Origin: a virus
Taxonomy: Duplodnaviria > Caudoviricetes
Direction: 5' to 3' (one strand)
IMG/VR virus record: IMGVR_UViG_3300036908_000165
Span: 1 to 60,942 of that record
Length of the DNA stretch: 60,942 nucleotides
Position 1 is the first letter of the stretch. Every line of letters begins with the position of its first letter. The notes beneath the pieces are model-generated. The model was not told the origin of the DNA, made no database searches, and was given only the letters and a program-made list of their open reading frames with translations. Positions 31,338 to 53,902 of this stretch are shown here, in pieces. Position numbers and translations under genes: made by a program.

Positions 31338-31602
31338 CACTGAGCGCATGGAGAGCGAGATGCGGGATCTGATGGAAGCCCATCGAGAAGAACTGCTCGA
31401 TGCAATGGAAGCACAGAATACGGCGCTCGCCGCCGCCCAGGTCGCCTACGCCGCAGCGATCGACAAGTCGCGGCAGAAGCTGATGACCGAGATTGAAGCA
31501 CGGTTGTCGGTGTGGAACGGCGAGCCGGCAAAGGCTCTGCCGGCTGCGCTCGATCCCGAGCTTATTTCGTCGGGAGAGAGTTCTGGATTAGCGGCGAGCT
31601 GA
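31330..31602 (+). CDS. Coiled-coil hypothetical protein
   Basis: GGAG RBS before an internal ATG; start uncertain. Confidence 0.5.
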   Translation: MSSTERMESEMRDLMEAHREELLDAMEAQNTALAAAQVAYAAAIDKSRQKLMTEIEARLSVWNGEPAKALPAALDPELISSGESSGLAAS

Positions 31603-32024
31603 CCCGGACGAAGGAGAAGCCATGAGTCGCCCAATCCCAGCTTCGGTCCTCGCCGCACTTGCCTGGGGGACGGGGGCGATGGCGCAAGCGCCAATTGGAA
31701 TTATGCTCTCTCTCAGTCTCATCGCCCTGGGAACGTATGCTGGTAGTAAGGCGTACATACTCTTTGTATTTAGCGCCGACCTCGGCGGCTTGGGCCGTAA
31801 GTTCTTTTATCTTTTGTTCGTTGCGGTCAACGCGGGTTTTTATGGATTCATACTTTTCGCGCACACGTTGTCTAACCCGTAACTTTCAAGCGTCATAATT
31901 CGCTTTCGCGCTTGACACAGTGCACGAAGATTCCTAGCCTTTTCAAGGCGATTAAGGAGCGTGGGGATGACCGGCCCGACCTTATTTCGTCGGGGGAGAG
32001 TTCTGGATTAGCGGCGAGCTGACC
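31561..32024. repeat. 44-bp direct repeats (31561-31604 and 31981-32024)
   Basis: 43/44 identity; flank a lower-GC insert. Confidence 0.92.
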
Positions 32025-32788
32025 TGGGCGCGAAGGTTCTCGAACCGCGTCTCCAACGAGCGCACCGTGTCGACGATCGACCACCCGGTGTGAATCTGCG
32101 CCTCGGTTGCGTTCTCGGCACGCGCCAGCGCATCGAGGCGATCTTCCAGGGCCTTGTTGCTGGCAGCAATCTCCGGGCGCTTGATCTGGTCTGCGGCGAC
32201 AACCCCTAAGTTATCCTCTATCCTCTTCATATCGCGCTGATTGTACTCATGCCGAATCGCGATCTCGCCGTCGATCCGCTTTTCGTATTCGAGCTGCGCG
32301 ACCATCGGCCATTCGTCACGGCGAAGCGCCGCGAGTTCGCTATCCAAGGTATCGAACCTCTTGGCGTCATTGGCGTGCTGCGCGACCGCCGAGAGAATCG
32401 GCTGCATCACTTCGTCGACATGCCTGATATCGCTTTTTCGCTCGATCGACTCCGCGACAATCATCGTCTCGATGCGGGCAACGTTCGAGTTTTCTTCCGA
32501 CTTCGTGTAAGCCCAAAAACTCCCGGCGATAGCGAACGAAGTCAGCACCAACCCGATGATCGAACGCCAGTCGGTCGGCTTGGCCGCCTGTAGGGTAATC
32601 CGGTTCCCGAGGTCTTTTGCCAGCCCCTCGAAAGCCTCTCGATTCTCGCGTCTCAGCGTGGCGACGTCGCTTGCGACCGTATGGAACGCATCTTCCATGG
32701 TGGTGACGCGCTGCGTCAGGATGCCGAAGTCCGTGTGGAGCTGGCCCGAAGGAGGCGCGGCGCGAGGTTTTATTTTGGATGTCGTCAT
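31982..32788 (-). CDS. Single-TM coiled-coil protein
   Basis: TM segment IIGLVLTSFAIAGSFW; end of the lysis operon. Confidence 0.6.
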   Translation of the reverse strand: MTTSKIKPRAAPPSGQLHTDFGILTQRVTTMEDAFHTVASDVATLRRENREAFEGLAKDLGNRITLQAAKPTDWRSIIGLVLTSFAIAGSFWAYTKSEENSNVARIETMIVAESIERKSDIRHVDEVMQPILSAVAQHANDAKRFDTLDSELAALRRDEWPMVAQLEYEKRIDGEIAIRHEYNQRDMKRIEDNLGVVAADQIKRPEIAASNKALEDRLDALARAENATEAQIHTGWSIVDTVRSLETRFENLRAQVSSPLIQNSPPTK

Positions 32789-34454: not shown

Positions 34455-34823
34455 TCAGCTTCCGTAGGGACCGAAGTGGAACGGCGCCGACACCTTCATT
34501 CTTTCGCCGGTGCGCTTCATGGCGGCCGTCTGCGCCGCAACCGTCACCGTGCCCGATCCGCCGATGTTCGAAATCCCGGCGACGACATTGGCCACGTCGT
34601 TTGCAAACGTCGGACAGTCGTTGGTGACGTCGGTGATGATGCCGCCGACCACGGAATTGATCGCCGTACCGTCAGGCAGCAGTCCCGAGACGGTCGCCAC
34701 CGCTTGCGCGCCCGCGCCGAGTACGGTGCAGCCGGCGAGAATGTTTGCCGCCACTTGCGTCGAGGTGCATCCGGCGAGCAAGATGGCCGCCGAGGTGGCT
34801 GATGCGAGGAGTATCTTTTTCAT
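34455..34823 (-). CDS. Lipoprotein (possible spanin)
   Basis: MKK signal with LAGC lipobox; in the lysis cluster. Confidence 0.6.
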   Translation of the reverse strand: MKKILLASATSAAILLAGCTSTQVAANILAGCTVLGAGAQAVATVSGLLPDGTAINSVVGGIITDVTNDCPTFANDVANVVAGISNIGGSGTVTVAAQTAAMKRTGERMKVSAPFHFGPYGS

Positions 34824-35472: not shown

Positions 35473-35688
35473 TCACGGTAGGCGCAAGCCTCGCGTGTCT
35501 TTTAAAGTCTTCATCATGATGCGGCGCAACACCTTTTGCTGCTGGACCCCGTGCTCTTCGTTCTCGTTTAGCCCCCACCTGACCGTGCGCTCCGGGATGC
35601 CCAGAACCAGACCTATCTCGTGAGGAAACATTCCCCGGTCCCGCATTGCCCGCGCTTCATTTGGCCATGCGACGGGCAACGGGGTCAT
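35473..35688 (-). CDS. Small HTH protein
   Basis: GMFPHEIGLVLGIPERTVRW. Confidence 0.55.
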   Translation of the reverse strand: MTPLPVAWPNEARAMRDRGMFPHEIGLVLGIPERTVRWGLNENEEHGVQQQKVLRRIMMKTLKDTRGLRLP

Positions 35689-36296
35689 TGGGGTACTCCC
35701 TTGATTTCGGCGATGCGCGCCGTCACGAGCCCAAGCGCCCATGCGTTCGTCACGAGATTGCCTGGGCATGCATGATGGTCTGCAATGCAATCGCGATGGA
35801 AAGCCACCGCCGTCTCTGGATTCCAGCCGAACCGCACGCACAGCGCCGCGATGATGTTGGCCGACGCCTGCATCGACGCGAGCCCTTGGCCGTTCGACGG
35901 GTCGTCGCCGCCGGTAGTGAAATTCCCGATCGTCTCGACGCCGTAGTAGTTTTCGTTACGGCAAGAATCGTGGACGCCATCCGAATTCACGTCGCAGAGC
36001 ACCCACGACCATCCGTCGGGAGTGCCCATAAAATGCGGCCCCGAGTGCCATCCCATATTCTTGTAATAGGGATCGAGGCCGGCGCCGTAGTTGATCCGCG
36101 TCGTCGGCGACCACGTATTCCAGAGCCCGAGACTGGGGCTTCCGGTGTTGTGCCAGACGACGCCCACCGGCGCCCACATGCGTCCCGCGTAGGATGTTCC
36201 GGCCGGGGCCGGTTTGAAGTTCGTCTTCTGGATCGCCGAGATGTATTTCACCATGGCGTCGGCGTCGAGCCGAAGAACGGGGTTGATGAAGCTCAT
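35685..36296 (-). CDS. Endolysin, N-acetylmuramoyl-L-alanine amidase
   Basis: VWHNT, GPHF, GVE, FHRD...ACPG. Confidence 0.85.
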   Translation of the reverse strand: MSFINPVLRLDADAMVKYISAIQKTNFKPAPAGTSYAGRMWAPVGVVWHNTGSPSLGLWNTWSPTTRINYGAGLDPYYKNMGWHSGPHFMGTPDGWSWVLCDVNSDGVHDSCRNENYYGVETIGNFTTGGDDPSNGQGLASMQASANIIAALCVRFGWNPETAVAFHRDCIADHHACPGNLVTNAWALGLVTARIAEIKGVPQ

Positions 36297-36327: not shown

Positions 36328-38436
36328 TCACTGTAGACGCTCCAACGTCACATCATATTTGACCGTCGGCGTGCCGGTCACGCTTGTCGCGACAAGCGCC
36401 CATTGAACCGCCGTTGCCGCATCGGCATGAAGGGTCTCACAAGTTTGCTGGGCGGCGCCCAAATGGGTGTATTGCGGCGTGGCCGCAATGGCCGCCGTAA
36501 CGGTGTCGTTTTGTGAGTTCCCATTCGCCGTATATGAGGCCCATCCCTGAAAAGTTCCGGCTGTTCCGGCCACGGTCATCTCAAGAAAGAAACACATCCT
36601 GTAAGTTCCACCGCCCGGCGGCGCAGTGATAAGCGTCGAATAGCTGGTCCCCGCCGTTCCGCTGTACGATCCTTGGTTAACGCTCGCCACAGCTTCGACG
36701 ATTCTATTAAACGTTCCGGCTCCGCTTTTTTCGGCCATATAGGTCGGCGGCGCGCTTCCGGGGGTCCAATTCGATGACACCTCATTGTCGCTGAGGACGA
36801 CGTTGACGCTTGCGCTATCGTTGTAAATCCCGGCGGTTGCAGCCCCCGCGATCGCGTTGTCGCCGACGCGCCAAGTCTCGTTGACGTAATAGGCGTTGGA
36901 CGCATTCTCGAAGTCGATACCATATGTCCCAAGCCCCTGGGCATGCGTCGAGTTTAGCGACAGATTGCAATCGTTGTGCTCTATGGCGCCCTCGCCATAA
37001 GCCGGAAGGCCAGTGTTGGTCGTCGCCACAACAATACAACGCTGCGCAGAAGTGTTGACCGGAGCACCGATAGGTGGAGAATAGGCATTCTGAAATAGAT
37101 TATCGTGAATGTGGACTTTGAAGTGACCTTCTGCCGTGTCGTTAGCAATCTTAATGCCAACCGGCATAAGTTCAAAATAGTTGTTGTGAACTTCGGTTAC
37201 ATCTGGATTACTTAGATATAGACCCCCCACATTGCTTGCAAAGAACTGGTTAAGGTCAATCTCCATGTTGCCATAGTTATATGCAATGACTTCCCATGAA
37301 GTGAACCCTCCAAATAGGTTATTATGAAGCTTACCTTGAAAGCCCGCCGCTGGCGTATCGAAGATAATAGCGTTTGCGGCAGTCCACCCCCCAGAAAAGA
37401 CATTATCTTCAATATCCGAAGGGCCATTGATGCCGTGGAAATGGATGATCGACGTTGCCGCCGCTGTCTCGATGAATGCAAGATGCTGAAAACTTACATC
37501 ATAGGTGTAGTTGGCCGGGTTGCCTCCGGATTCAATTAAAAATTCATCTCCAGTTCCCGTATAACGTAGCGCTGATCCACCGGCTGTTGTACTTAAAGGC
37601 GCTTGTGGCGAAATGCCTTCAACACGAACGAATCCTGTGATGTTTAGAGTGGATGCGTGTGAACAAATATGTCCATTTGGAATTATTATTTGGCCCGCGC
37701 TTGAGGTGCTTTGTGTTTGCGCCGCGTTTATAGCTGCTTGAAGTGCCGCACTGTCGTCTGTTGAACCATCACACACGGCATTATATGGCGGCGACATTGG
37801 GTTGATGGGCGGGAAACCGCTGGCACCGGGCTCAAAGTCGCTGTTCGTCGGATTCCATGTCGGAACTTGCCCGGCCGTGTAGGTCGCGCTAGGCTTGTAA
37901 GCGAGGCCCTGAACCTTGGCGGCGTTCCCTACTGTGAGGCCCGAGGCCGTCCCTGTCAGGTTGGTCGCGACGCCGTCGAGCGGCGTCCCGAGTGCGCCGC
38001 CGTTGACGACCGGCGCGCCAGCCGAGCCGATAGCGATTTGCAGCGCCGCCTCAACACCAGCTCCGGCCGGGAAATGCTGCGCCACGCCGGCCCCACCCGT
38101 CCCACCGTAGAGTTGCGAGGTCGTCAGGCTGGGAAGCGCCGTTTGAAGCGGCGCCAACGAGTCGGCGAGGACGCCGTTGTTGTCCCACAGCACGCCGCCG
38201 TTCGTCGATGGAACGAGTGGCGTTTGGCCAGGCGCAATCGGTACGAGCGGCGCAATAGCGTCGCCAAGCTGCGTCACCGTCATCTTCTTGGAGACGCCGC
38301 CTTGGACAACATAGAGCAATTCACTGCCGGCGAGCGGCGTCGATACCTGCGGGCAGGTCGTCAGCGTGCCGCACTGCTGCGCCGCGGCGGGCGACGCGAT
38401 CAAAACAGCGACGAGAGCGATCTTCAGTCGGACCAC
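36328..38436 (-). CDS. Tailspike-like beta-helix protein with signal peptide
   Basis: CDGSTDDSAALQAAINAA pectate-lyase-type cap; Asn ladders; low-GC core. Confidence 0.75.
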   Translation of the reverse strand: MVRLKIALVAVLIASPAAAQQCGTLTTCPQVSTPLAGSELLYVVQGGVSKKMTVTQLGDAIAPLVPIAPGQTPLVPSTNGGVLWDNNGVLADSLAPLQTALPSLTTSQLYGGTGGAGVAQHFPAGAGVEAALQIAIGSAGAPVVNGGALGTPLDGVATNLTGTASGLTVGNAAKVQGLAYKPSATYTAGQVPTWNPTNSDFEPGASGFPPINPMSPPYNAVCDGSTDDSAALQAAINAAQTQSTSSAGQIIIPNGHICSHASTLNITGFVRVEGISPQAPLSTTAGGSALRYTGTGDEFLIESGGNPANYTYDVSFQHLAFIETAAATSIIHFHGINGPSDIEDNVFSGGWTAANAIIFDTPAAGFQGKLHNNLFGGFTSWEVIAYNYGNMEIDLNQFFASNVGGLYLSNPDVTEVHNNYFELMPVGIKIANDTAEGHFKVHIHDNLFQNAYSPPIGAPVNTSAQRCIVVATTNTGLPAYGEGAIEHNDCNLSLNSTHAQGLGTYGIDFENASNAYYVNETWRVGDNAIAGAATAGIYNDSASVNVVLSDNEVSSNWTPGSAPPTYMAEKSGAGTFNRIVEAVASVNQGSYSGTAGTSYSTLITAPPGGGTYRMCFFLEMTVAGTAGTFQGWASYTANGNSQNDTVTAAIAATPQYTHLGAAQQTCETLHADAATAVQWALVATSVTGTPTVKYDVTLERLQ

Positions 38437-38798
38437 AGGTAGCCTCCTACGCCGCCTTCAAGATGTAGTGGACAGTTGTTTTTCTCGAACAGGAACAGCG
38501 CGTGGTAGCTCGGCAGGACCGCGGAGTTGTAGAGCGCGACCGGATCTCTCGTGGCTCGAAACGCTTGGATTACGCCGAACGGCACGCCGGCGAACATCAT
38601 TATTACGGACCCGGAAGCGACGTAGAGCATCTGTGCCGCCTGGTCGTAGCCGACCGAAGAAATCGTGCTGAACGAGACAATCTGGTTGGGAAACTGGATC
38701 GTCCAACCGGCGTCGATCGACGGGCACGGCTCGGCCGGCGGGACCGCCGCGGCGGGCGTCGAGGTGAACAAAGCGAGCATGAGAGCGAGCCGACGCAT
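38424..38798 (-). CDS. KTSC-like protein with signal peptide
   Basis: STISSVGYDQAAQMLYV...FAGVP; MRRLALMLALF...AAA. Confidence 0.6.
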   Translation of the reverse strand: MRRLALMLALFTSTPAAAVPPAEPCPSIDAGWTIQFPNQIVSFSTISSVGYDQAAQMLYVASGSVIMMFAGVPFGVIQAFRATRDPVALYNSAVLPSYHALFLFEKNNCPLHLEGGVGGYLWSD

Positions 38799-38799
38799 T

Positions 38800-40257
38800 T
38801 CAATACCTCAACTGCGCGGAAAGCTGCTGCGTCTGGCCAGTGCCGATGCCAGACCCGTAGAATGTCTCGGTTGCGGTAAAACTCGTGTATTCGAGCGCCT
38901 GAAAATAATTCAAACCGACGTTGCCGTAACCGATGACGGTCGCGACTTCCGCCGCGACAGCAATTCCACTGGGCGTCATGCCGAGCGTCCCCAGGAATGG
39001 CGTCGAGACGCTATTGTAACCGATGCCGACTTGCGTGTATTGCGTCGAGCTTTGCGTACCAAAACAGGTGTAGATGACTTCAAACACATCTTCGGCCTGT
39101 CCTATAACGAACGTGAGCCGGTTGTTATTGCTCGCGTCGGCTGCGCGCCACGCGGCGGTCGCATAGGTCCAGCTCGCCTTACTATCCTGCGCCGTCAGGA
39201 CAACTGGCACGCGGTTGTATTGGTTCCACAGGCCAAGCCCCGCGCCGTTCGTCGGACCGCCGCTCGCCGCCGCGGGCTGCGGGTTGAATGTCACCGTCGC
39301 CGCGCCGGCGTCGCAAGCGATCGTACCGACGTAGAAGCCGTAGCCGGCAGCGGGGCCGTTGGTGATCGGCAGCGAGTTGACCAAGAAGCCTTGCACGCGA
39401 CTCAGGTTGAGCGAGCGAGCCGTGCTGCTCGTCCATGCCGGACCGCGCGACAGCGTCGCGACACCGGCCTTGAACCAGACGAACATGTCGTAAAGACCGC
39501 CGGCGACCGCGGCGGCGGGCGAGTTCACCGTGTCGCTGAGAACCTGGCTGATCTCGGGGAAAGTCGTCGAGCTCCACGCCGAGCCGCTCCACTGCGGCAC
39601 GGTAGCGCCGTTGAAAGGCGTCCAAATAAGTCCGCTGGCTCCGATCACGGCGCTTGCCAGCACCGGCACGCCGCTCGTCAGCGTCAGGCGGCCGTTTGGC
39701 GGCTGGGCGACGCCGGTTCCGGCGAGCGGCTGCCAGCCTGAAGCGCCGTAGCCCTCGAATGCGGCAAGCGTCGTGTTGTAGCGGATCGCGCCATTCGCCA
39801 CGCTGTTGCGCTGGCCCGTCGTGCCGGCGGGAACAACGATCTCGCCGGTTCCCGACATCGACAGGTCAGCGGCGAAAGCCGCGGCGCCGGTGACGGCCAG
39901 CGTGCCGCCGACGGATAGATTCCCGCCGAATGTTCCGTTACCCGAGACGCTCAGGCTGGCGAAGTTCCCCGGCGAGTTCGATCCCGGAGGCAACAACAGC
40001 CACGCGCCGCTGGCGCCGGTCGGCTCGATGACCGTCGAACCATTGTCGGTGGCCGTGCTCGTTGAATTGTACCAAAACCAGCCTTGCAGGCCATCGCCCT
40101 CGGAGGATCCCCCGAGCACGAACACTGCCATGTCGTCGAGCGCGGTGAAGGTGCGCAGTTGGGCGAAGTTCCGGACGACCTGGACGTAGGTGTTCAGCTG
40201 ATCCGCGTCGACCGAGCCTTGACCTTGCTGAGCGACTGTGGGGAGCGGAGGAGCCAT
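38800..40257 (-). CDS. Tail fibre protein
   Basis: PAGTTGQR, IRYNTTLAAFEGY and GRLTLTSGVPV fibre motifs. Confidence 0.75.
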   Translation of the reverse strand: MAPPLPTVAQQGQGSVDADQLNTYVQVVRNFAQLRTFTALDDMAVFVLGGSSEGDGLQGWFWYNSTSTATDNGSTVIEPTGASGAWLLLPPGSNSPGNFASLSVSGNGTFGGNLSVGGTLAVTGAAAFAADLSMSGTGEIVVPAGTTGQRNSVANGAIRYNTTLAAFEGYGASGWQPLAGTGVAQPPNGRLTLTSGVPVLASAVIGASGLIWTPFNGATVPQWSGSAWSSTTFPEISQVLSDTVNSPAAAVAGGLYDMFVWFKAGVATLSRGPAWTSSTARSLNLSRVQGFLVNSLPITNGPAAGYGFYVGTIACDAGAATVTFNPQPAAASGGPTNGAGLGLWNQYNRVPVVLTAQDSKASWTYATAAWRAADASNNNRLTFVIGQAEDVFEVIYTCFGTQSSTQYTQVGIGYNSVSTPFLGTLGMTPSGIAVAAEVATVIGYGNVGLNYFQALEYTSFTATETFYGSGIGTGQTQQLSAQLRY

Positions 40258-40258
40258 A

Positions 40259-40819
40259 TCACACCATGAACCACTTCTCGACGCCGGCGACGTACTGCCA
40301 CGTCGCGGGCGAAGCGGCGCCGAGCGTCGTAATCGGCGCGAGAATTGTTTGGCCGCTCGGCGCTACGAGCGTCAGCGCCGTAATCGTCTGGCTCGACGAC
40401 AGCGTCAGCATTTGACCGTCGATCGGCGCCGCCGGAAAGGTGATTGTTCCGGCGGCGAGCGTGCCGACAGGGTCGAGCAGCAGCGACGTGACGCCGTTAG
40501 CGACCTGGATCGCGAAGCCGGTGACAGGCGTCTGGTAGGAGTAGGTCGTCCCCAGCTTCAACCACGCGCCTTGGATAGCGCCGGTCGGAACGATGACCGT
40601 CGCGCCGTTGTCGGTGGCGAGGCTGGCGGCGCTGTACCAGAAGCGGCCACCCAGCCCATCGCCCGGCGTCGCGCCGCCCTGCACGTCGGCCAGCATGCCG
40701 GTGAGGCCGGTGAAGGTGCGCAGCTGCGCGAAGTTCGTCACCGTCTGGACGAACGTGTTCAGGTTGTCGCCCGAGACGACAGCAAAACCTTGAGCGAAGA
40801 CGGTAGGCAGCGGGTTCAT
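40259..40819 (-). CDS. Short tail fibre paralog
   Basis: N-terminal domain shared with 38800-40257 (LNTxVQxVxNFAQLRTFT). Confidence 0.7.
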   Translation of the reverse strand: MNPLPTVFAQGFAVVSGDNLNTFVQTVTNFAQLRTFTGLTGMLADVQGGATPGDGLGGRFWYSAASLATDNGATVIVPTGAIQGAWLKLGTTYSYQTPVTGFAIQVANGVTSLLLDPVGTLAAGTITFPAAPIDGQMLTLSSSQTITALTLVAPSGQTILAPITTLGAASPATWQYVAGVEKWFMV

Positions 40820-40945
40820 TTTTCTACCCTATCACAAGTCAGCCGCTTTTGTCTGTTCAACCGCCTCACCCCTCCATCATCGGCGCGCGGTCCGCCGCCT
40901 CCAGGAAGATGGCGAGGCAGAGGGTGATTGAAATGGCGACCCAGA

Positions 40946-42574
40946 TCATTTCACGCCGTATCCTGTTATATAGTATGGGAAGGATGATCCTATCCACGTG
41001 TTGAATGTTGAATCGGGCCCACCACTTCCATTTCCTAATAAATTGACATTTCCTGATACGGTCGGCACCGCCGATCCGGCCTGTGCTGAATAGAAACTAA
41101 AATAGAAACAGCCGCTCGGGTCAACCCAATTCCCAGACATATTCGTGTTTGTGTAATTTAACCCTGCGTCACCCGCAATAATCGATCCGCACGTTGCATC
41201 GTCAGCAGCGGGGTATAAGAGAGGCGCCGCATTGGAAATAAATACGTTTCCAACAAAATTTCCATTAGTTAATGTTTGTCCTGAGTACGTCGCCTGATTG
41301 CGGGTCAGCATCGATGTACCGCCATATTCATTGGAATTTAGGACTTCCGTATTATACGAAATATCCATATAGCCTTGGACATTAGCACCAGAGAAATTCG
41401 CGAATTGCGGGTCTCCATGCTCTATCGCGGAATTTAAGGTTCCTGGCGCGACGGCATTCGATTGAGTCAACGCATATACACCGACACCGTTGGTCGCCCC
41501 CGAGGTTTGACTGGAAATAAATGTGTTCGAGTATTCTGCCCCCGTTAAGGTTGGCGATGTCACCTTAGAGTGTGTTGTCCCAGGTACGATCCCTTGCGCG
41601 ATCGATGTCACAGTCAGCACATTTCCCACGACGCCATCATAGGTTCCCCCGCCCATCCCGTCATCAATGAATCCAGTGAATATACCCTGTAGCTGACCCA
41701 TCCCCTGTTCGTAGTTGTATCTCCACATTAACGACCCATATCCCGGCGAACTCCAATACGATTGGATCGTGTCAATAAACTCGTTGTATATAACGCATGC
41801 AGAATAAGATGTTGTGCACGGCCCAACTTGACTCAATAGACTAGACGGGTTGATCGCGGTCCAAAATATCATGCTTAACGCGCCGGGGTATAACGCGAGC
41901 CTCGCTATAGAGTTGCCATTAACGAGATTATTGCAGAATATCACCGGGCCACTACCGCCGAAAAACACAAAGTAATATTGATTTACCAAAGCGCAGTCCG
42001 AGTTCCATTTGAATATATTGTTGTGTACGTATTGTGTCCCGGTCACCGACGATGTAAAACTCAATACTACACAATTTTTGCCGCTGCTGCATACACCCCC
42101 AGCAAAGCTCGCACAACTGAAATCAAAACCGTTAAACTCCACACTGGCCGTGCCGGAGCATGTCAACGTGGAAGTTGAACTATTGTAGGCACAATGCGCC
42201 GGCAGGTTGCCACTGACGGTCGGATCGAGGAGCGTCGTCGGCGTTACACCGTTGGGGAGTGTGCTTGCATCAATTCCAACGGGGTAATCAACACCAGGGA
42301 CGTTTTGCGTCGGCCGCGTGATATAGATTTGACCGTTTTGTCTCGCGCAACCTAACTGGCCGGCCGTGCATGTTGCAGTGAAGAAATTTGGGTACTGATA
42401 AGTTCCAGTACTTGCAACCGGAGCACCAGGACATCCATCCGGCAGGGCGGTCCCGTAGGGGCACGCAGATCCAGACGAACCATGAAACGCGGCCATCGGT
42501 GATGGGCTCGTGAACACAAAGGCGATGAATATGAGAAGTCCCGGCGCGAGACTTGCGATGATACGATTCATCAT
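40946..42574 (-). CDS. Cys-rich, low-GC exported/receptor-binding-like protein
   Basis: Signal-like N-terminus; beta-rich S/T/N/G composition. Confidence 0.6.
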   Translation of the reverse strand: MMNRIIASLAPGLLIFIAFVFTSPSPMAAFHGSSGSACPYGTALPDGCPGAPVASTGTYQYPNFFTATCTAGQLGCARQNGQIYITRPTQNVPGVDYPVGIDASTLPNGVTPTTLLDPTVSGNLPAHCAYNSSTSTLTCSGTASVEFNGFDFSCASFAGGVCSSGKNCVVLSFTSSVTGTQYVHNNIFKWNSDCALVNQYYFVFFGGSGPVIFCNNLVNGNSIARLALYPGALSMIFWTAINPSSLLSQVGPCTTSYSACVIYNEFIDTIQSYWSSPGYGSLMWRYNYEQGMGQLQGIFTGFIDDGMGGGTYDGVVGNVLTVTSIAQGIVPGTTHSKVTSPTLTGAEYSNTFISSQTSGATNGVGVYALTQSNAVAPGTLNSAIEHGDPQFANFSGANVQGYMDISYNTEVLNSNEYGGTSMLTRNQATYSGQTLTNGNFVGNVFISNAAPLLYPAADDATCGSIIAGDAGLNYTNTNMSGNWVDPSGCFYFSFYSAQAGSAVPTVSGNVNLLGNGSGGPDSTFNTWIGSSFPYYITGYGVK

Positions 42575-44268
42575 GGGACCGTCACCACGATAGATGTTTT
42601 GTAGAAGGCCGCGATCGAGGTCGTACCCGCATTCTGCGATGTTGTGATGTCTGCGGAGGTCGGACCAGCGGCCACGCTGGAATTTGCAATTATCGCCGTG
42701 TCGGTCAGATCGTAGCAGGCGAACGCATTACCAAGGCCTCCGATGGTGATTCCACTCGATGCGGTGCTGGTTATGCCACATGTTGGCGGTGTTCCCGTCG
42801 CCGCCGATGCCTGAAACAATTGTGTTCGGGTATCGCCGGACGGAGCGGCAGTGTCGATCGCTGACCAAAGGTCTTTGATGTGCATTCCTATCGGGACGAC
42901 GCCCTCGCCAGCCGACTGCGTTGTAGAGTTGCTCATTGCTCCTTCAATGAGCGCGTATCGCGCTGCGATCAGCGTAGGTAGCGTGGTCCAGCTACCGAGC
43001 ATAATAGCGTTGTAGGCTGCGCTTGGCGTATATCGGGCAGATGCTGTTATAGCTTGCGCAGTCGGCGTGCCGTAGGGATAGAATGATAATGACACCGTAT
43101 CGCTAGCGTGTACCGTTACGGAAGATGTCAATACGTCATTGCATGATTTGGATGCACTGTAGATTACGCATGTACATGCTGTTAAGATCGTCGCCTGCAC
43201 GCCGCCGGCAACTGCGGATGTACATGTTGCCCCGCCACCTATTGGCGTGATAGCGCCATTCACGTAGAGCAGAACGGCATAACCCTTACTTGATGCTGGT
43301 GCATTTCCGGCTATCGCATATATCCGGTCGATCGCACCAACCGTCGCACCGGCAGTCGGACCGGGAATAATTGATGACACCAATGCTTCAGTGGTGTTAG
43401 GACCACTTGTGAAACCTACCCAATTCTGCGCACCGTTGGGGGCCGTCGCACCACTAAAGAATATCCCGCTTGTCCCATCTGGCGTGTGCAACACAAACGA
43501 CGCCGAACCACCCGCCACTGCGCCAGGCGATGAACTGTTGGGATCAGTCTTAAGAACAACTAGGTCCCCAGCCGTCACTGTGAGGGGACTATCCGCAGTG
43601 TCGTTGCAATAAGTTCCCGCCACAGTTATTGGACAATTTGTTATGCCGCCTATGCTTGTTGAGGCCGTCACGTTAAGTAGAGAGTTAATGTATTCCATAG
43701 CGCCAGTCAACGTAGCTGGCTCATTTACAGTGAGATTGCGTATCGTGCCACTAACCGGCATTGGTACTTCTGAGACCGATTCGGCAGTACTCCACGATTG
43801 ACCGCTCGGTGCTAGATAGCTTATTGCACTTGTGCTAGGCTGTGTATGCCCACCCATCACCACAGGTGTGTCCATGCCGGTGCCGGTGATCGTCTCTGGC
43901 TGCGTGTACGGGGAACCAGACGCCCCGGCGATCGTCGCGATGATGTTTATGCTGTAGGTACGCGAAAGAAGGACGCCCTGGGTTTCCAGATTTGCCGTTG
44001 CGACTTGAAAGGACGCTTGGTCGGTTCCGCTGATCGTCCACGTAGGACTGGCACACGATCCGGTAGTGCTGGCCGACATAGCGCTGACGACCGTACCGCT
44101 CGCCGCGAGCCCGGCAAACGAGGCGGCGCCGCTCGGACTGACGCTAACGATTACGCAGGAGCCGGCAACGGCCGGAGAACCAAGTCCCGCCCCCGTCAGC
44201 GCAAGCTGAGCGAGCGCGGGCGTCGCGAGAAGGCATAATGCGGCTAGGAGATAGCGCAAGGGGTGCAT
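42571..44268 (-). CDS. Cys-rich exported/structural protein
   Basis: MHPLRYLLAALCLLATPALA-Q signal peptide; cadherin/Ig-like segment. Confidence 0.6.
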   Translation of the reverse strand: MHPLRYLLAALCLLATPALAQLALTGAGLGSPAVAGSCVIVSVSPSGAASFAGLAASGTVVSAMSASTTGSCASPTWTISGTDQASFQVATANLETQGVLLSRTYSINIIATIAGASGSPYTQPETITGTGMDTPVVMGGHTQPSTSAISYLAPSGQSWSTAESVSEVPMPVSGTIRNLTVNEPATLTGAMEYINSLLNVTASTSIGGITNCPITVAGTYCNDTADSPLTVTAGDLVVLKTDPNSSSPGAVAGGSASFVLHTPDGTSGIFFSGATAPNGAQNWVGFTSGPNTTEALVSSIIPGPTAGATVGAIDRIYAIAGNAPASSKGYAVLLYVNGAITPIGGGATCTSAVAGGVQATILTACTCVIYSASKSCNDVLTSSVTVHASDTVSLSFYPYGTPTAQAITASARYTPSAAYNAIMLGSWTTLPTLIAARYALIEGAMSNSTTQSAGEGVVPIGMHIKDLWSAIDTAAPSGDTRTQLFQASAATGTPPTCGITSTASSGITIGGLGNAFACYDLTDTAIIANSSVAAGPTSADITTSQNAGTTSIAAFYKTSIVVTVP

Positions 44269-44279
44269 GGGGTTATGCC

Positions 44280-45254
44280 TCAAAACTGCGTGTACCAATA
44301 GTCAATGTCGACGCCGCCAGTGCCGGTCGATTTGATGCACATGCCGTGACCAGAAGTACCCTTGAAGCCGTTGAAGAACGGCGACATCTCGACTTCGCCA
44401 GTGTTGGCCGCTTCGGTCGCGATGCCCGTCAACTGAGAACCGAGGTTGCTGCAATTAGCGTTGGCGTCCGCCTCGTCCTCGAAATACCACGTCGCGACGC
44501 CCGCGGCCCGAGCGCGCCAACCGCAGAAATAAATCGTCTGCGAAGCGACGCCCTGAATGGCGAGCGTGTCGGTCGCCGACGTGATGTGCTTGAACGTGTG
44601 CTGGTCGCACTGGACCAAGCCCGCCGAATAGCCGCCCGTTGCGCCGGACTCCTTGGCAAGCACCTGGACGCCGTTGGCAGGAGCCGCGGCACCGGTCGCC
44701 CCGAGGCCCCAGCTCGCCGACGTCGTCGGATTGACTGTAACCGCTGTCGGCGGCGTCAGCGTCGTGATCTGCGCCGCCGTGAGAACGACCGGAGCGGAAT
44801 TGGCGGCGAGTTGCTGACCAAGCGCGTAAGTCGCGCCGCCGATCTGCGTCTCGTTGAAACTCCAAGGACCGCCGATCTGATCGACGCCTCCGATGTCGAC
44901 GCCGGTTCCGGATTGGGCCGCGAGTGGATTCTTGGCGACGGTGTAGATGCCCTTCTCGACCGAGATCAGCGTCGCGTTGCCGGAGCCGCTCCACGCCGCA
45001 TCAGCAGTCGTGCCGAGATCAACGATCGAGCCTGTGGCGTATGCGCCGGCAACGGCTGTGACCGCGCCGCCCCCGCCTCCACCCCCACCGCTACTGCAAA
45101 GGTCCCCGGTCAGATTCATCGTGATAGGGAACGACTGTCCTGCCACCAGGGTCTGGTTGCCGCACGAGGCGACCGTGTAGGCCGACATCGTCTGTGCCTG
45201 CGCCGATGCGCATAGACAAGCCGCTGCGAAAGCGGCGAACAGGATTCTCTTCAT
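44280..45254 (-). CDS. Exported/structural protein
   Basis: MKRILFAAFAAACLCASAQA-Q; ATGA overlap with the upstream gene. Confidence 0.65.
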   Translation of the reverse strand: MKRILFAAFAAACLCASAQAQTMSAYTVASCGNQTLVAGQSFPITMNLTGDLCSSGGGGGGGGAVTAVAGAYATGSIVDLGTTADAAWSGSGNATLISVEKGIYTVAKNPLAAQSGTGVDIGGVDQIGGPWSFNETQIGGATYALGQQLAANSAPVVLTAAQITTLTPPTAVTVNPTTSASWGLGATGAAAPANGVQVLAKESGATGGYSAGLVQCDQHTFKHITSATDTLAIQGVASQTIYFCGWRARAAGVATWYFEDEADANANCSNLGSQLTGIATEAANTGEVEMSPFFNGFKGTSGHGMCIKSTGTGGVDIDYWYTQF

Positions 45255-45892
45255 GTCATCCACCTGCAAAGGAAAGCCTGGCCGGTCGTCGCGCCGAACA
45301 CCGCGATCGCGTCGGTGAAGCACGACGTGCCGTTGAGCAGATACGGCGCGCTGGCCGCCGACAGCAGCATCCCCGACGTCGCCGACGGAACCGCGCAGCC
45401 ATAGGGGTCGAGATCGCTGTTCATGATGAAGACGTAGGGCGCGATCGCGTAGCCGGCGCCGGGATCGTCGATGACGATCGACGAGATGGACAGATTCGGC
45501 GCCGAGCCGGTCATCACGCAGTGGGCGCATGCGACGCGTCCGGCGACGATCGACGAGTTGGGCCCGTCGCCGCCCGGCTGGTTGAGCCCGAGGAAAGCCG
45601 TGTTGCCGGAATAACCGCCGCCGGCGAAGCGCACGACCGGCGGCTTGGAGAAGTTGAAGCCGGCGTTCGTCACGGCGATCGACGTGATCGCGCCGCTGGT
45701 GATCGTCGCAGCCGCGCGCGCCGAGCCGAAATCGAACCACAGCGGCCCCGCCGACACATTCTGCAGCATCAGGAAGGAGCGCGACGGCGTCACCGGCAGG
45801 ATCAACTGCGGCGTGCCGCCCGCTACGATCGCGCCGTCCGCGGTGAAGAGAGGATGGCGTTTGGCTTGGTTGCCTGAGCCCACAAGTTGCAT
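45251..45892 (-). CDS. Structural protein with TNxGxxY repeats
   Basis: AAGGA RBS; ITSIAVTNAGFNFSKPP. Confidence 0.65.
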   Translation of the reverse strand: MQLVGSGNQAKRHPLFTADGAIVAGGTPQLILPVTPSRSFLMLQNVSAGPLWFDFGSARAAATITSGAITSIAVTNAGFNFSKPPVVRFAGGGYSGNTAFLGLNQPGGDGPNSSIVAGRVACAHCVMTGSAPNLSISSIVIDDPGAGYAIAPYVFIMNSDLDPYGCAVPSATSGMLLSAASAPYLLNGTSCFTDAIAVFGATTGQAFLCRWMT

Positions 45893-46840: not shown

Positions 46841-49696
46841 TTACTGTAAACTGCGACGATGCTGAATATACTGACCGAGCCCCAACGACTCTCCACCTGC
46901 AGCGACAGCTAAAGCAGCCGCAATCCAAGCGGCAAATTTTCGAGCACTCTCATGGTCCATGTTCTTCTTCTCGGCCTCACGAGCGTCGCTGAAAAACTTC
47001 TGGTACTGGGCCTCGCTGATCGAGCCGCGATCGTACAGCTTCTTGGCCGTCGACTCGGCGGCTGAGACGATCTGTTTCGGCGTGTTCTTCGGCTCGTTCA
47101 TTTCTATCTCGAGCCGGCGGATGGCGCTGCGCGCCGCAGTTGCCTTGGCCTTCATCGAAGCCAGGTCAGTGATATTTTGCTGCGTCTTCTTGAACCCCGG
47201 CTTGTCCGCGGCGCTCGCAGAACGCAATTCTTCGGCCTTGCCGGCTTCCGTCTCGGCTGTTTCTTCCGCCGCTTTCAGGCCGTCTCGCATCGCCTTGTAT
47301 TCCGGCATGAGCCCGGACTTCTCCAAGGTGATTCGTTTGTTTTTGATAAGCTGATCGAGAGCTTTCGAATCAGGGGTCTTCGGCAGATCGAAATCAAGCG
47401 CCCGCTTGACGGTCTCTTTCAAATCGGGCTTGACGGAGATCAACCGCTCCAGCGCCTTGCCGCCTTCTTCCGTCTGATCCGTGATCAGGTTCTTGATTTT
47501 GACGGCATCCGTCACGGGTTCGCCGGAATAAAGATCGGACTCAGCGGCCTTGGCGAGCTTGCCCTTGCGCTCGTAGATGTCCACGTCGCGAGACAAGTCG
47601 GCGTACTTCATTCGAGCCGTTTTCAGATCGGGATGCACGGTCTCCATATGCTCGACAAACTCGTTTCGAATGTCGATCAATTCATGCTTGACCTGCGACG
47701 TCGAGCCTTCGATTGCGGTATTGAGATTCTCGACGAAATCCCGCCCACGCTCTATAGAAACACTGCTAACCGTCGGGCCGCCTTTAACGACTGGCTTCGT
47801 GGCTAGCTTCGATTTCAGCGACCCGAGATCGACATCGAAGCGCTTCTCGATATCCGCGATCCTGCTTATCGCCGCCTTCGTATCGATGGACGGGAGCCCA
47901 TGATCCGACTTGACTGCGGCGTCGAAGCCTGAATCGGCGCGTCGCTTGTCTTTAGCCGCCTTCACGTCCTTAGCCATCACCTCTGAAGCTTCGGCTCCAA
48001 GCTTCTCGGGTGGCGTCGTCGGGCGCGCCGCGATCTCGGAGACCTTTGCCTGCCTGGCAGTTTCCGCCTCCGCCGCCTTCTTCTCTTGCGCGACTGTCGA
48101 CGACTCCTCGCCTGCCGCCTGCGTCTTGGCGTTCAGCTTGTCGATTTGCGCGATCTTCGCCGTCCGCTCCTTCTCGGACAGAAACTTGCCGGTCTCGGCA
48201 TTGACACCCTCGCGCAACTCTTTTGAAAGGCGCTCGGCTTCGCCGCCCCAGATATCGCTGACCTCCTTGGCGGCCCAGCCATAACCTTTCTTCACAAGGC
48301 TGGTGGCGCTGGGAATAACCGCTGCGCCGGCGCCGCCCATGACTCCGGTAGCCGCGATGTCTGTCAGCTTCTTCTCGGCACGATTCGTCGGATCGGTTTC
48401 ACCTGTTGGTTGAGCCGCGCCAAACAGGCCGCTCCAACCAGCAGCCTCGGCGATCTTTCCGGCCCACGGCGCAGCTTCGGTGAAAGCCTTGACGCCAGCG
48501 CCTGCCGCCTCGGCGCCCTTAGCAAGTGGCAGCGACTGTACGAGCGCTCCGCCGATCGACTGACCAATAGGTGCGCCGACGCCCTCGAGAGTTTTGTCCG
48601 CTTCGGCGGCGCCTTGTCCGATAGCTCCCGGCACGTTCTCCGCAACACCCAACACACCTTGTGTGGCGCCGGAAGCGACGCCCTTGCCAAGATCCTCTCT
48701 CGCCTGAAAGAACCGGCCGGGTGACGCAGCTTCCCAGAAGCTCAGCGGCTTTTCGCTGGCGTCAGGCGACTTCCCATATGGATTGTTCTTGCCGACATCC
48801 TGCGCGTAAGCCTCTTGCGGATCGAACGGAACCATCTTAGCGCCCGGCGGAAGCGGCGGAGCCTCAGACGCTGCGGCCTTCGTGTCCCCGTCCATCGGAA
48901 CAAGCTTGGCTCCAGGCGGAAGCGGCGGCGCCGAAGCGTCGTTCGTCGCGTCTGAAATCGCATCGGAAGCGACCTGAGGTTGAGAATTTTCGACGGATTT
49001 CGTCTGAGTGGCGTCGAAAGCCGTTCCGTCGAAGTCCTTAGTCATCATTCCGTAGATCTGGCTCAGATTCCTCGGCTGGTTCGGATCGCCGCCGTGAAAG
49101 AAGATCGTCGGATTGTATTTTGCTTCGAGCGGAAACAGCGCCGCGGCGTTGGTCGTCGGCTCAACCTGCATCGCTTTCAGAAATTTCGGGCCGCCCGCGG
49201 TCCCAAGGAAGTGCATCATGTAGAGGTTGGACGGCGTCGGATCGAACCCCTCTTTCTGCAGGACGCGCGAATTGTCGGCGGTCAGTGCCTTCATCGCCTG
49301 ATCCTGCTTGTCGCCGTTCCAGATATCCTCGGGCCGCAGCCCCAGCTCAGGATGCGCGGCGGCGACGCCCAGCCACGTCCGCTGCGTGAACTGGTAGCGG
49401 CCGAACGCCGTGCCGTTGCCGGCCATGTCGTTGCCGCCGCTCTCGCGCCGGCGCACGGTCGCCATATAGTCGCCGCCCGCCGGCTGCGCACCGGCGGGAG
49501 AGCCGCTCGCCGCCGGCTGCGGACCGGCGAGAGCGCCGCCGGCCGCCGGCGCGTTGAAGTAGCCCGGATGCGTCTCGGGCGTGATCTTGCCGGGCTTCAC
49601 CGCAGGCTGGGGAGCGGCCTCCGGGGGCGGCGCAAGAACCGTCGGCGCCCAAGGCGTCGTTTGGTCGAGCGCAGTGCTGTCATCCAAGAGGCTCAT
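46841..49696 (-). CDS. Internal virion/ejection protein with lysozyme-like domain
   Basis: RESGGND, AFGRYQFTQRTW, LYMMHFLG; 951 aa. Confidence 0.75.
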   Translation of the reverse strand: MSLLDDSTALDQTTPWAPTVLAPPPEAAPQPAVKPGKITPETHPGYFNAPAAGGALAGPQPAASGSPAGAQPAGGDYMATVRRRESGGNDMAGNGTAFGRYQFTQRTWLGVAAAHPELGLRPEDIWNGDKQDQAMKALTADNSRVLQKEGFDPTPSNLYMMHFLGTAGGPKFLKAMQVEPTTNAAALFPLEAKYNPTIFFHGGDPNQPRNLSQIYGMMTKDFDGTAFDATQTKSVENSQPQVASDAISDATNDASAPPLPPGAKLVPMDGDTKAAASEAPPLPPGAKMVPFDPQEAYAQDVGKNNPYGKSPDASEKPLSFWEAASPGRFFQAREDLGKGVASGATQGVLGVAENVPGAIGQGAAEADKTLEGVGAPIGQSIGGALVQSLPLAKGAEAAGAGVKAFTEAAPWAGKIAEAAGWSGLFGAAQPTGETDPTNRAEKKLTDIAATGVMGGAGAAVIPSATSLVKKGYGWAAKEVSDIWGGEAERLSKELREGVNAETGKFLSEKERTAKIAQIDKLNAKTQAAGEESSTVAQEKKAAEAETARQAKVSEIAARPTTPPEKLGAEASEVMAKDVKAAKDKRRADSGFDAAVKSDHGLPSIDTKAAISRIADIEKRFDVDLGSLKSKLATKPVVKGGPTVSSVSIERGRDFVENLNTAIEGSTSQVKHELIDIRNEFVEHMETVHPDLKTARMKYADLSRDVDIYERKGKLAKAAESDLYSGEPVTDAVKIKNLITDQTEEGGKALERLISVKPDLKETVKRALDFDLPKTPDSKALDQLIKNKRITLEKSGLMPEYKAMRDGLKAAEETAETEAGKAEELRSASAADKPGFKKTQQNITDLASMKAKATAARSAIRRLEIEMNEPKNTPKQIVSAAESTAKKLYDRGSISEAQYQKFFSDAREAEKKNMDHESARKFAAWIAAALAVAAGGESLGLGQYIQHRRSLQ

Positions 49697-52187: not shown

Positions 52188-52397
52188 TCACCCCGTTGCT
52201 GTCGGCGCAGACTTGAGGCCCATGCCGGCCAAATCACCAGTGGTGTTAGCTGCTAATTTATCTAGCCTGTCCCTGTACCATTTCCTGTACAGGTCGAGCA
52301 CATCGCTATTCGACAAAACAAACTCAGCTAGTTCATCTTGCCTAATTTTAACATTCGCTGGTAAATTGTACCAGTCCAGAGGAATCTTAGCGGTCAT
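52188..52397 (-). CDS. AT-rich inserted ORF ending in the duplicated tail
   Basis: Ends in AGMGLKSAPTATG, as does 52688-53902. Confidence 0.55.
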   Translation of the reverse strand: MTAKIPLDWYNLPANVKIRQDELAEFVLSNSDVLDLYRKWYRDRLDKLAANTTGDLAGMGLKSAPTATG

Positions 52398-52687: not shown

Positions 52688-53902
52688 TCACCCCGTAGCT
52701 GTCGGCGCAGACTTGAGCCCCATGCCGGCCATCGCGCCGGCGAAATTGGCGATCGAAGTCGACAGCGCCGCGTCCTGCTTGACCGAAGCGTCCATCAGGC
52801 CCTGATAAAGCTGCGCCGAGAATTCGTTCTCGCTGATGCCTTGTTGAAGCAGGTTCGACGCAATCTGCGCGCCCTGGCTGACCGTCGTGGCGTTCAGATT
52901 CGCCAGATCCTGAGCTTCCGCGCTCGATCCGGTCTGGCCGCGCGAAGCGTACTGCGAACGAATTGTCGCTGCGGCCGAAGAATTTGCTGAGGCGAGGCCC
53001 GCCGAAACGCCGGGCGGCAGCGTGCCGGAAGTCAAGTAGGACTGAAGTTCCTGGCCCTGTGCCGACATCTGCGCCGCCTCGGCGCTGACTTGGCCCTGGT
53101 AAGCGGGCTTCTTGTCTCCTTGCAAAACTGACGACGCCAAGCCGCCGGCGCTCAGCGCCATCGGCCCATAGGATTTCAGCATGCCAAGCACACCAGCGTC
53201 GGTCGGCGGCGGCGCCGGCGGCGCTGCCGGCGGCGGCGCTGCCGGCGCTGCAGCGCCCGGCGCCGCGGCGAGGCCCGTCGGCGCGCTCGACGCCCCGAGC
53301 GCCGAGTCGGCCGTGGATCCGGTCAAGCCACCGCCACCGCCGGCGCCGGTCAGCGATGAATCACCAAGGCCAAACTCGCCGGTAGCGCTCGGCGCCGCCG
53401 CGGCGCCGGCAGGCGCAGCAGCGCCGGCAGCCGAGCCGGCCGGAGCGCCCGCGCCCGGCACGGCGCCTGTGGCGGCCGTCGTCGGCGCCACCGTGCCCGA
53501 CGCCGTGGAAGCTCCCGCAGCCGGCATGTCGGCGGCGGTCGCAGTCGAACCGGGAACGCCGGCGCCCAGCGCGCCTGCCGCGCCAGTGAAATCCGCCGCC
53601 GGCGTCGCCGCCAGCGAAGCAAACGAACCGCCGATATCGGCGGAGGAGAGACCACCCGCCGTCGCGGCGGCGTCGAGCTCCGGCGCCGCGGCAGTGAGCA
53701 TCGCATCTGTCGTCGCACTGTCGGCGGCAATCGTGCCGAGCGCCGCGGTCGTCGCCGCGTCAGCGCCGCCCGCCGCAACCGCGCCGCCCGCCGTAGCCAA
53801 GCCGGCGTCGGCCGCGCCAGCCGCGCCGGCGCCAAGCGCCGCGCCAGCGCCGCCGATGCTGTCCGTGATGGCCGCAATAAGCGGAACCGAAATGCATCCC
53901 AT
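52688..53902 (-). CDS. Ala/Gly-rich ejection (pilot) protein
   Basis: MGC start, low complexity, follows the GNAT-like gene as in podoviruses. Confidence 0.65.
   Translation of the reverse strand: MGCISVPLIAAITDSIGGAGAALGAGAAGAADAGLATAGGAVAAGGADAATTAALGTIAADSATTDAMLTAAAPELDAAATAGGLSSADIGGSFASLAATPAADFTGAAGALGAGVPGSTATAADMPAAGASTASGTVAPTTAATGAVPGAGAPAGSAAGAAAPAGAAAAPSATGEFGLGDSSLTGAGGGGGLTGSTADSALGASSAPTGLAAAPGAAAPAAPPPAAPPAPPPTDAGVLGMLKSYGPMALSAGGLASSVLQGDKKPAYQGQVSAEAAQMSAQGQELQSYLTSGTLPPGVSAGLASANSSAAATIRSQYASRGQTGSSAEAQDLANLNATTVSQGAQIASNLLQQGISENEFSAQLYQGLMDASVKQDAALSTSIANFAGAMAGMGLKSAPTATG

Follow-up and report, generated by a model that had tools for sequence, protein, structure and literature searches.

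Why should a tailed phage equip late genes of its tail end with Sec-type signal peptides, when by textbook account all tailed-phage assembly takes place in the cytoplasm? The question is posed by virus record IMGVR_UViG_3300036908_000165, an uncultured, short-tailed phage from peat whose genome is rated 100% complete and whose whole length of 60,942 bases constitutes the window analyzed here. Five of its late genes, designated A, B, E, F, and G and encoding proteins of 702, 124, 542, 565, and 324 residues, respectively, bear such leaders and are placed on the minus strand between the ejection-protein genes and the endolysin gene. Leaderless genes D and C lie among them, and another leaderless gene, H, is located directly upstream of G. 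The data described below suggest that host-recognition parts of this phage fold outside the cytoplasm, the compartment in which the rest of the particle is built.

Leaders were scored with a home-made rule (not SignalP) that requires basic residues in the n-region, a hydrophobic core free of charges, and small side chains at positions −1 and −3, applied to all six-frame open reading frames (ORFs) of at least 45 residues. A sequence-only reading of this DNA had pointed to five Sec-type N-termini, and all five were recovered at these minus-strand genes, four of textbook type and that of E longer. Gene A (36328-38436, scoring 5.6) starts at a GTG codon, with a leader at residues 1-19 (38380-38436) that reads MVRLK...AAA before QQ; that of B (38424-38798, 4.9) spans residues 1-18 (38745-38798). 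The G gene (44280-45254, 4.6) starts at 45254 with MKRIL... inside an ORF that extends over 44280-45740, and its leader takes up about residues 1-18/20 (45195-45254), whereas F (42571-44268, 4.5) starts at 44268 within the longer ORF 42571-44298 and has a leader at residues 1-20 (44209-44268; MHPLRY...ALA before Q). The leader of E (40946-42574, 3.7) comprises about 28 residues (42491-42574). All elements of the rule are present in A, B, F, and G: each has a basic start and a hydrophobic core 8-13 residues long, and Q or V comes directly after the A-x-A site. Since the longest uninterrupted hydrophobic runs of the leaders are of 8-13 residues, their cores are too short for membrane anchors.

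Other scores of at least 4.5 came only from alternative starts within the five genes and from one 54-residue internal start (4.6) in a 109-residue transmembrane gene; by this rule, no large gene elsewhere in the genome has an N-terminus of this kind, one lipoprotein excepted. Similarly, in a rough greedy set of 62 non-overlapping ORFs, from which filters had dropped E, F, and B, both A and G were flagged and none of the 60 others. Our own arithmetic sets the chance of finding five leaders among seven neighboring genes below 1e-3, even if 10% of all genes had a leader. No lipobox was found in A, B, E, F, or G, the pattern match on AACLC in G falling inside the hydrophobic (h-) region. Tat export of B was considered because of an RR pair and rejected, as the h-region is short and hydrophobic and the Tat consensus is absent. 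The leader-coding DNA of A (38380-38411) and B (38745-38776) is 81% alike, and these two leaders may share an origin. Taken with the start sites and homologs treated next, the short, non-anchoring cores make it very probable that the predicted leaders of the five genes are working export signals.

The sequence-only reading had also raised the concern that the true starts might lie downstream of the hydrophobic segments, which the data speak against. Shine-Dalgarno-like motifs are located 7-14 nucleotides (nt) upstream of the starts of A (AGGAGG), B and F (GAGG in both), and G (AGGTGG), and the E start is preceded by only a weak GGTGA. The database gene call for F in this window, P0022, starts 190 residues downstream of our proposed start; F relatives, however, align upstream of the P0022 start, right after their own leaders, which supports the longer form. 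The same reading had asked whether homologs lack these N-termini, and in the A, E, and F families and all aligned members of the B family the leaders are kept. A search with the first 130 residues of A as query identified 19 proteins among 1812 candidates, and a hydrophobic leader is evident in all 19 by eye and in 18 by the rule, the remaining member having no basic residue, perhaps as a result of its called start. At least four different types of N-domain follow the leaders in this family, which indicates that the leader is not simply carried along with one conserved domain. Five of five F relatives have a leader, and three of three E relatives have a hydrophobic N-terminus, among them P0030, with a textbook leader ending in ASA before AFHGSSG, the sequence with which the mature chain of E also starts. 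For B, 73 representative relatives were retrieved at E<=1e-3, and each of the 39 rows of the family alignment has a leader; when 50 representatives were scored, the rule flagged 36, another 7 have leaders that fail the strict rule, and the other 7, the exception to this conservation, start without one. The slots of the leader-bearing genes are also filled by leader-bearing genes in the related loci L003, L004, L006, L008, and L011.

The proteins behind these leaders differ in type. In A, the leader is followed by a conserved N-domain of ~100 residues that begins with QQCGTLTTC; then come the beta-helix, at about residues 218-560, and a C-terminal domain. The tailspike-type beta-helix recognized by the sequence-only reading is borne out by the Pfam NosD family (26.5 bits vs. 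a cut-off of 23.6), Beta_helix and Pect-lyase scoring below their own cut-offs, and by a match to a PHROG named 'tail spike protein' (5e-5), so that on sequence grounds A is classed as a tailspike-type beta-helix protein. Its relatives keep only the first 57-103 residues, the C-termini being replaced (bodies of 702, 933, 788, and 859 residues), and family members carry the beta-helix domains PF13229, PF05048, and PF12708 as well as PF09206 and PF13884, the last of which we take to be the endosialidase-type intramolecular chaperone of phage fibers. Comparison of the A N-domain and the A profile with PDB sequences gave chance-level matches only. The core of B (residues 37-94) is a KTSC domain: 34 of the 39 B-family members match Pfam PF13619 at E<=0.01, B itself reaching 19.5 bits, below the cut-off of 25, and the family profile matches the KTSC structure PDB 7x8c with E 2.3e-6. 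Over the 39 aligned rows, the family has a cysteine pair with one residue near each end, C25 being invariant and C109 present in at least 90%, and B is thus described as a KTSC-domain protein of predicted export with a conserved Cys25/Cys109 pair. A B gene lies upstream of the A homolog in every relative having one (L003, L006, L008, and L011). Some B-family members (P0032, P0048, P0065, P0066, P0085, P0091, and P0092) carry several copies of the KTSC unit or of its C-terminal 'NCP..LQE.GGYIW' motif, and three long proteins of 740-1802 residues match the B query in 5-8 stretches.

In F, an Ig-like insert separates the leader from a conserved core (about 440 residues); Pfam, PHROG, PDB-sequence, and Atlas searches with F returned no match, the F profile likewise giving chance-level hits only against PDB sequences. 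An Atlas feature search for E points to beta-helix families with scores of only 0.81-0.85, and E is possibly a second beta-helix protein. The first 55 residues of G are 65% identical to a leader-bearing protein of 229 residues in the same position in L004, the remainder being unrelated; G has no Pfam or PHROG match, and nothing was retrieved when viral contigs were scanned by pattern for E and G. For the N-domains of A, E, F, and G, no match to a known anchor domain was obtained. D and C, in turn, are by their sequences ordinary leaderless fibers, and their position between leader-bearing genes agrees with the two interleaved, signal-less fiber genes of the sequence-only reading. D (40259-40819, 186 residues, devoid of cysteine) has an N-terminal domain of particle-binding type and a small C-terminal domain; its N-terminal 87 residues are 63% identical to C, the domain common to both proteins being about 90 residues long, and the D-family profile matches residues 25-114 of the 'particle-associated glycoside hydrolase' PDB 6c72 (E 9.8e-6). 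C (38800-40257, 485 residues) is a conserved tail fiber or spike that matches, over residues 176-469, a Pseudanabaena phage Pam5 protein annotated as tail spike (E 1e-18); further matches are to virion proteins in PHROG, and identity over the full length is 60-64% in L003 and L006.

Most of the leader-bearing proteins are also rich in cysteine, as had been read from the sequence. The mature chains of A, B, E, F, and G contain 8, 2, 15, 10, and 6 cysteines, i.e., 1.1-2.8% of residues, as compared with 0-0.5% in the leaderless virion proteins of the genome (0 in the 951- and 640-residue proteins and in D, 0.2% in a 426-residue protein, 0.4% in C, and 0.5% in an 849-residue protein). Among the mature chains, four of the five in the window and 16 of 19 in the A family have an even number of cysteines, with a binomial tail of 0.002 for proteins that are not independent. 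Export gains only modest support from the cysteines.

The leader-bearing genes are embedded in a compact late region. From upstream to downstream on the minus strand, the order is a gene for a 951-residue protein, three small genes, H (45251-45892, a leaderless tail-module protein of 213 residues), G, F, E, D, C, B, A, an Amidase_2 endolysin gene, small membrane proteins, and a lipoprotein. Translational coupling, as formerly proposed, fits the overlaps or short gaps at all junctions (overlaps of 4 nt at H/G and F/E and 13 nt at B/A; 11 nt between G and F, 1 nt at both D-C and C-B, and 31 nt between A and the endolysin gene) except E-D, where 126 nt intervene. Promoter and terminator scans revealed nothing above shuffled controls that splits the module. 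Contigs of two RNA libraries cover parts of A, B, C, D, and G, although DNA is possible in such libraries and this coverage is therefore no proof of transcription.

We then compared the module across six related viral contigs and one fragment from a metagenome-assembled genome (MAG). H, D, and C are conserved throughout, whereas the leader-bearing genes vary as cassettes. H, which served as lineage marker and matches PHROG repeat domains of virion structural proteins, is 54-86% identical in L003, L006, and L008 and 90% in L004. E and F are absent from all relatives in this comparison, and the same slots hold other leader-bearing proteins, of 410 residues in L006, 179 and 210 residues in L003, 229 and 517 residues in L004, and 491 and 678 residues in L008. 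The 517-residue protein of L004 matches a PHROG named 'tail protein' (E 1.4e-16), and Pfam searches with ten leader-bearing proteins of relatives gave nothing above cut-off. Further small leader-bearing proteins were seen between the fiber and lysis genes of L003 (12628-13624; 205 and 122 residues) and L016 (12702-13004). The leader-bearing proteins are optional, exchangeable cassettes. Because the leaderless fiber C is conserved at 60-64%, diversification of the host-range type is borne by the leader-bearing proteins rather than by C. Judged from sequence features (a beta-helix, N-termini that are conserved, and C-termini that are exchanged), these proteins resemble receptor-binding proteins. 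The G+C content of A, E, and F (36328-38000 and 40946-44268) is 0.54-0.56 vs. about 0.60-0.65 elsewhere, and in E and F that of third codon positions (GC3) is below that of second positions (GC2), which suggests recently acquired cassettes.

The cassettes were further traced in environmental DNA. At least half of the sampled words of the module occur in 16 further peat or permafrost DNA runs from 14 studies, two additional runs being possible origins of the window DNA itself, and in two independent DNA runs long contigs match A and E-F-G without one difference. Summed contig depth over B-C-D was 4-7x higher in these two independent runs (the depth figures being per contig), and contigs diverge at about 38158, the end of the conserved N-domain of A, and at 40813-40818, just upstream of D. 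Such depths and break points are what cassette exchange at the module borders would give, and are consistent with a mixture of strains that have the core in common and exchange cassettes there, which is a reading of these data rather than a measurement.

Known systems offer partial parallels. The cultured Cellulophaga phage phi18:3 (NC_021794, Pachyviridae), also short-tailed, has three consecutive large genes, gp085-087, directly upstream of its endolysin gene, whose products start with the Sec-type leaders MKNKITIIMILMSISFGYS, MKKTIYILSILLLTISGVSA, and MKHTFSIVLFFILSIGLNA, each ending before Q. In the GenBank record, all three are entered as structural or tail proteins of the virion, 'based on experimental MS/MS proteomics analysis', an annotation that reportedly stems from Holmfeldt et al. 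2013. Their N-terminal parts are common to PHROGs named tail fiber protein or pectate lyase, again a conserved N-terminus with a variable body. The host of phi18:3 belongs to the Bacteroidota, and virion status, annotated there from tandem mass spectrometry, is here a possibility. The sequence-only reading knew of no characterized system of this kind; a full-text search of the literature retrieved no description of Sec leaders on tail fibers or tailspikes of tailed phages in the article portions it returned, but the phi18:3 record qualifies that statement with its three leader-bearing virion proteins.

D and C are comparable to podovirus tailspikes and fibers with an N-terminal particle-binding domain (PDB 6c72 and the Pam5 tail spike), in that both carry such an N-domain and the body of C resembles that of Pam5. 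A shares with podovirus tailspikes the beta-helix body, the conserved N-terminus, and the swapped C-terminus; however, the podovirus spikes known so far lack leaders and undergo cytoplasmic folding, whereas in A, E, F, and G a leader precedes the N-domain. Leader-bearing accessory genes of tail regions further include Llp and Cor of phage T5, and expression of Lom/Llp/Cor-type genes takes place in the prophage state or at an early stage of infection. They encode single small outer-membrane proteins or lipoproteins, in contrast to the five window proteins of 124-702 residues, which are of fiber/beta-helix or KTSC type, have no lipobox, and are coupled to late genes. The likeness of lambda Lom to the window genes is an export signal amid tail or fiber genes (PMC12309495). 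Sec- or signal-arrest-release (SAR)-exported endolysins (PMC8878798, PMC8951688) exemplify late phage proteins that pass through Sec before lysis, but these are lysis enzymes, and the window's own endolysin has no leader. As for B, its core is that of KTSC-domain proteins (PF13619; PDB 7x8c and 4rgi), to which the B family adds the leader and the conserved cysteine pair, one residue near each end of the chain; in this lineage, B invariably accompanies a leader-bearing spike gene.

From the observed leaders, their conservation, the modular build, and the cassette behavior, we infer export, cleavage, disulfides and, most conditionally of all, attachment to the particle. The five proteins would be expressed late from one operon together with the leaderless fibers and lysis genes, the host Sec system would move A, B, E, F, and G to the periplasm, and signal peptidase I would trim them. 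There they would fold, probably with disulfide bonds, A as a tailspike-type beta-helix protein, G, F, and E as further variable proteins of fiber, spike, or lectin type, and B as a small exported KTSC-domain partner of A. Meanwhile, the particle carrying D and C would be built in the cytoplasm, with the exported spikes waiting in the periplasm until holin lesions and lysis merge the two compartments and allow docking through the conserved N-terminal domains; the cassettes of receptor-binding proteins would thus sit atop a basal leaderless fiber set formed by D and C. As the endolysin is leaderless, lysis should depend on holin lesions, so that periplasmic spikes would meet cytoplasmic particles. 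Attachment is favored by the fiber- or spike-like nature of the proteins, by the combination of conserved N-terminus and swapped C-terminus, a hallmark of virion-docking parts, by diversification of host-range type in these proteins and not in C, by the tight coupling of the leader-bearing genes to fiber and lysis genes, and by the virion annotation of leader-bearing proteins in phi18:3. That the five proteins are exported and then join the particle as receptor-binding parts is a proposition in which we place about equal belief and doubt. The fuller version, in which this lineage builds its particle in two compartments, with head, tail, and basal fibers made in the cytoplasm and spikes exported by Sec, oxidized and trimerized in the periplasm, and attached when holin lesions merge the compartments, is put forward tentatively, doubt slightly prevailing.

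Several observations weigh against export followed by attachment, and some of them feed directly into other explanations. Attachment after lysis must compete with dilution, and sequence comparison identified no leaderless docking partner for the leader-bearing proteins. In L016, whose H is 77% identical, the order H-D-C is followed only by a leader-bearing protein of 100 residues, and in L005 nothing lies between H and D; the large leader-bearing proteins are therefore dispensable add-ons to the basal fiber set. By the rule, no leader-bearing gene is found downstream of the H-like gene in six more distant loci (L019-L024), and one is present in another such locus, L018; the leader trait belongs to a sub-lineage. 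The seven B representatives that start without a leader may be truncated gene calls or true leaderless forms. Even cysteine counts are a mixed pattern elsewhere (three of five F relatives, two of three E relatives, and 33 of 50 B relatives), and the count of E is odd. The proteins gp085-087 are not homologs of A-G, since they fall into different PHROGs and share no match with them, and the likeness of phi18:3 is limited to leader, position, and build, its record being silent on leader cleavage. Searches of a phage collection at the DNA and protein level with the module, A, H, B, and the A N-domain revealed no cultured relative, giving either no match or chance-level ones only. The optional nature of the large proteins, exemplified by L016, and the missing docking partner would equally suit proteins that are exported but never reach the particle, acting instead as free or envelope-bound periplasmic enzymes or lectins, an explanation we consider possible, if doubtful. 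These might destroy or mask the receptor glycan from inside, thereby blocking superinfection or keeping progeny from sticking to debris, or might loosen capsule or matrix at release, B being a chaperone or inhibitor of A. The genuine-looking and conserved leaders fit this explanation as well, and the NosD/beta-helix domain of A occurs in periplasmic bacterial proteins too. Precedents exist both for leader-bearing non-virion genes in tail regions, such as lambda Lom (PMC12309495), and for exported late phage enzymes in the form of Sec-type endolysins (PMC8878798, PMC8951688). Nonetheless, free enzymes have no obvious need of a conserved N-domain of 60-100 residues on swapped C-termini, or of fiber-type modules, and the phi18:3 leader-bearing proteins are annotated as found in virions. 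Timing is a further difficulty, as exclusion usually requires early expression and the leader-bearing genes are late and coupled to fiber and lysis genes. Conservation of C alongside variable leader-bearing proteins would be hard to understand were C the sole determinant of host range and the enzymes obliged to match its receptor, and C shows no C-terminal similarity to any leader-bearing protein. Receptor masking by a copy of the fiber's binding domain was examined as a candidate and rejected, no leader-bearing protein resembling the body of C.

The atypical leader of E, with an uncharged core of about 17 residues and an end in P-M-A that leaves a poor residue, P, at −3, would suit leaders that are not used for export, the proteins folding in the cytoplasm and assembling in the usual way with the N-terminal helix kept as a structural or membrane-active element. 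Such an explanation agrees with textbook cytoplasmic assembly. Disulfides would not contradict it, as they can form in released virions; the virion of phage Milano has many, with no export step described in the passages covered (PMC10811340). We nevertheless judge it distinctly unlikely, given that four of the five leaders possess every element of a cleavable Sec leader, that dozens of relatives show the same pattern with differing leader sequences, as a targeting signal and not a structural helix evolves, and that D and C, with their recognizable particle-binding domain, have no such N-terminus. Fiber-like modular proteins with leaders could also be exported and displayed on the infected-cell surface, as adhesins that hold neighboring cells or matrix near the burst in the manner of bacterial surface fibers derived from phage-fiber modules. 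This is highly improbable, since no outer-membrane translocation or anchoring signal, lipobox, beta-barrel-type domain, or C-terminal sorting motif was seen in the leader-bearing proteins, nor any secretion-system gene among the window proteins scanned. The sequence-only reading had left two options, export of receptor-binding parts and secretion of surface-modifying or exclusion proteins. The export signals common to both are well supported; the modular build and phi18:3 lean to receptor-binding parts, and the dispensability of the proteins and the missing docking partner speak for free ones.

The remainder of the genome is that of a tailed phage. The window encodes the major head protein at 371-1444, the large terminase at 6238-8127, an SU10-type adaptor at 59279-60079 (Pfam 7e-13), and a replication block with a family-A polymerase, a primase-helicase, DUF2800, an SNF2 helicase, and a C5 methylase; no tRNA genes were found in its 60,942 bases. 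With uncultured phages the capsid shares 37% identity; with phages of Myxococcus, TM7, Stenotrophomonas, and Bradyrhizobium, 22-25%. A single genome match was obtained, to a related-phage fragment of 2.6 kb in the bin of a Bryobacterales MAG, elsewhere in which H was not found. Of 301 genomes sampled from the phylum of this MAG, the B profile matched three: the MAG and two others, in which the match is confined to the KTSC core. The leaderless endolysin gene next to A (35685-36296, minus strand; Pfam Amidase_2, E 2e-10, and PHROG endolysin) forms a lysis block with the small membrane proteins and the lipoprotein (34455-34823, lipobox LLAGC). At the opposite end of the tail region, the 951-residue protein (46841-49696, minus strand) has no cysteine and no family match and is conserved in L004, L005, and L006; visual inspection suggests a lytic-transglycosylase-like N-terminal part and a hydrophobic C-terminus, and it is probably an ejection protein.

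Several repeats were also noted in the window. An 83-nt inverted repeat (11873-11955 and 27277-27359, 99% complementary) flanks 15.3 kb of the replication module, its right arm being the 5' end of the DUF2800 gene, and a Gin/Hin-type serine invertase gene (10163-10717, minus strand; Pfam Resolvase 2e-43) lies 1.2 kb outside the left arm. Possible explanations are an invertible segment, partial duplication, and a chimeric assembly. A 33-nt unit is arranged in tandem at 12977-13141 (reported as four overlapping 66-nt copies, 33 nt apart and 68-100% alike), an iteron-like arrangement that may denote an origin. Gene borders hold two pairs of direct repeats, one of 56 nt at 93% (31555-31610 and 31975-32030) and one of 44 nt at 95% (52188-52231 and 52688-52731), in which the 3' end of the gene for the 426-residue protein is repeated just upstream of that for the 640-residue protein.

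The module is common in peat and permafrost, and cultured Cellulophaga phages provide a bench system in which export followed by attachment can be tested. Should the proteins stay free in the envelope, they would represent a large, diverse, and little-studied set of phage-made periplasmic proteins that bind or cut glycans. If, instead, they are receptor-binding parts that join the particle, such proteins could bear disulfides and, in other hosts, glycans, from which cytoplasmic folding bars them; biotechnological expression of these spikes would need periplasmic routes, and annotation pipelines in which a leader counts against the label 'structural protein' would assign them wrongly. With host-range parts that mature in the periplasm, lysis timing, Sec, signal peptidase, and DsbA would determine infectivity. 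Under the two-compartment proposal, lysis would be the last step of particle assembly in this lineage, and the disulfide machinery of the host would be a host factor for infectivity.

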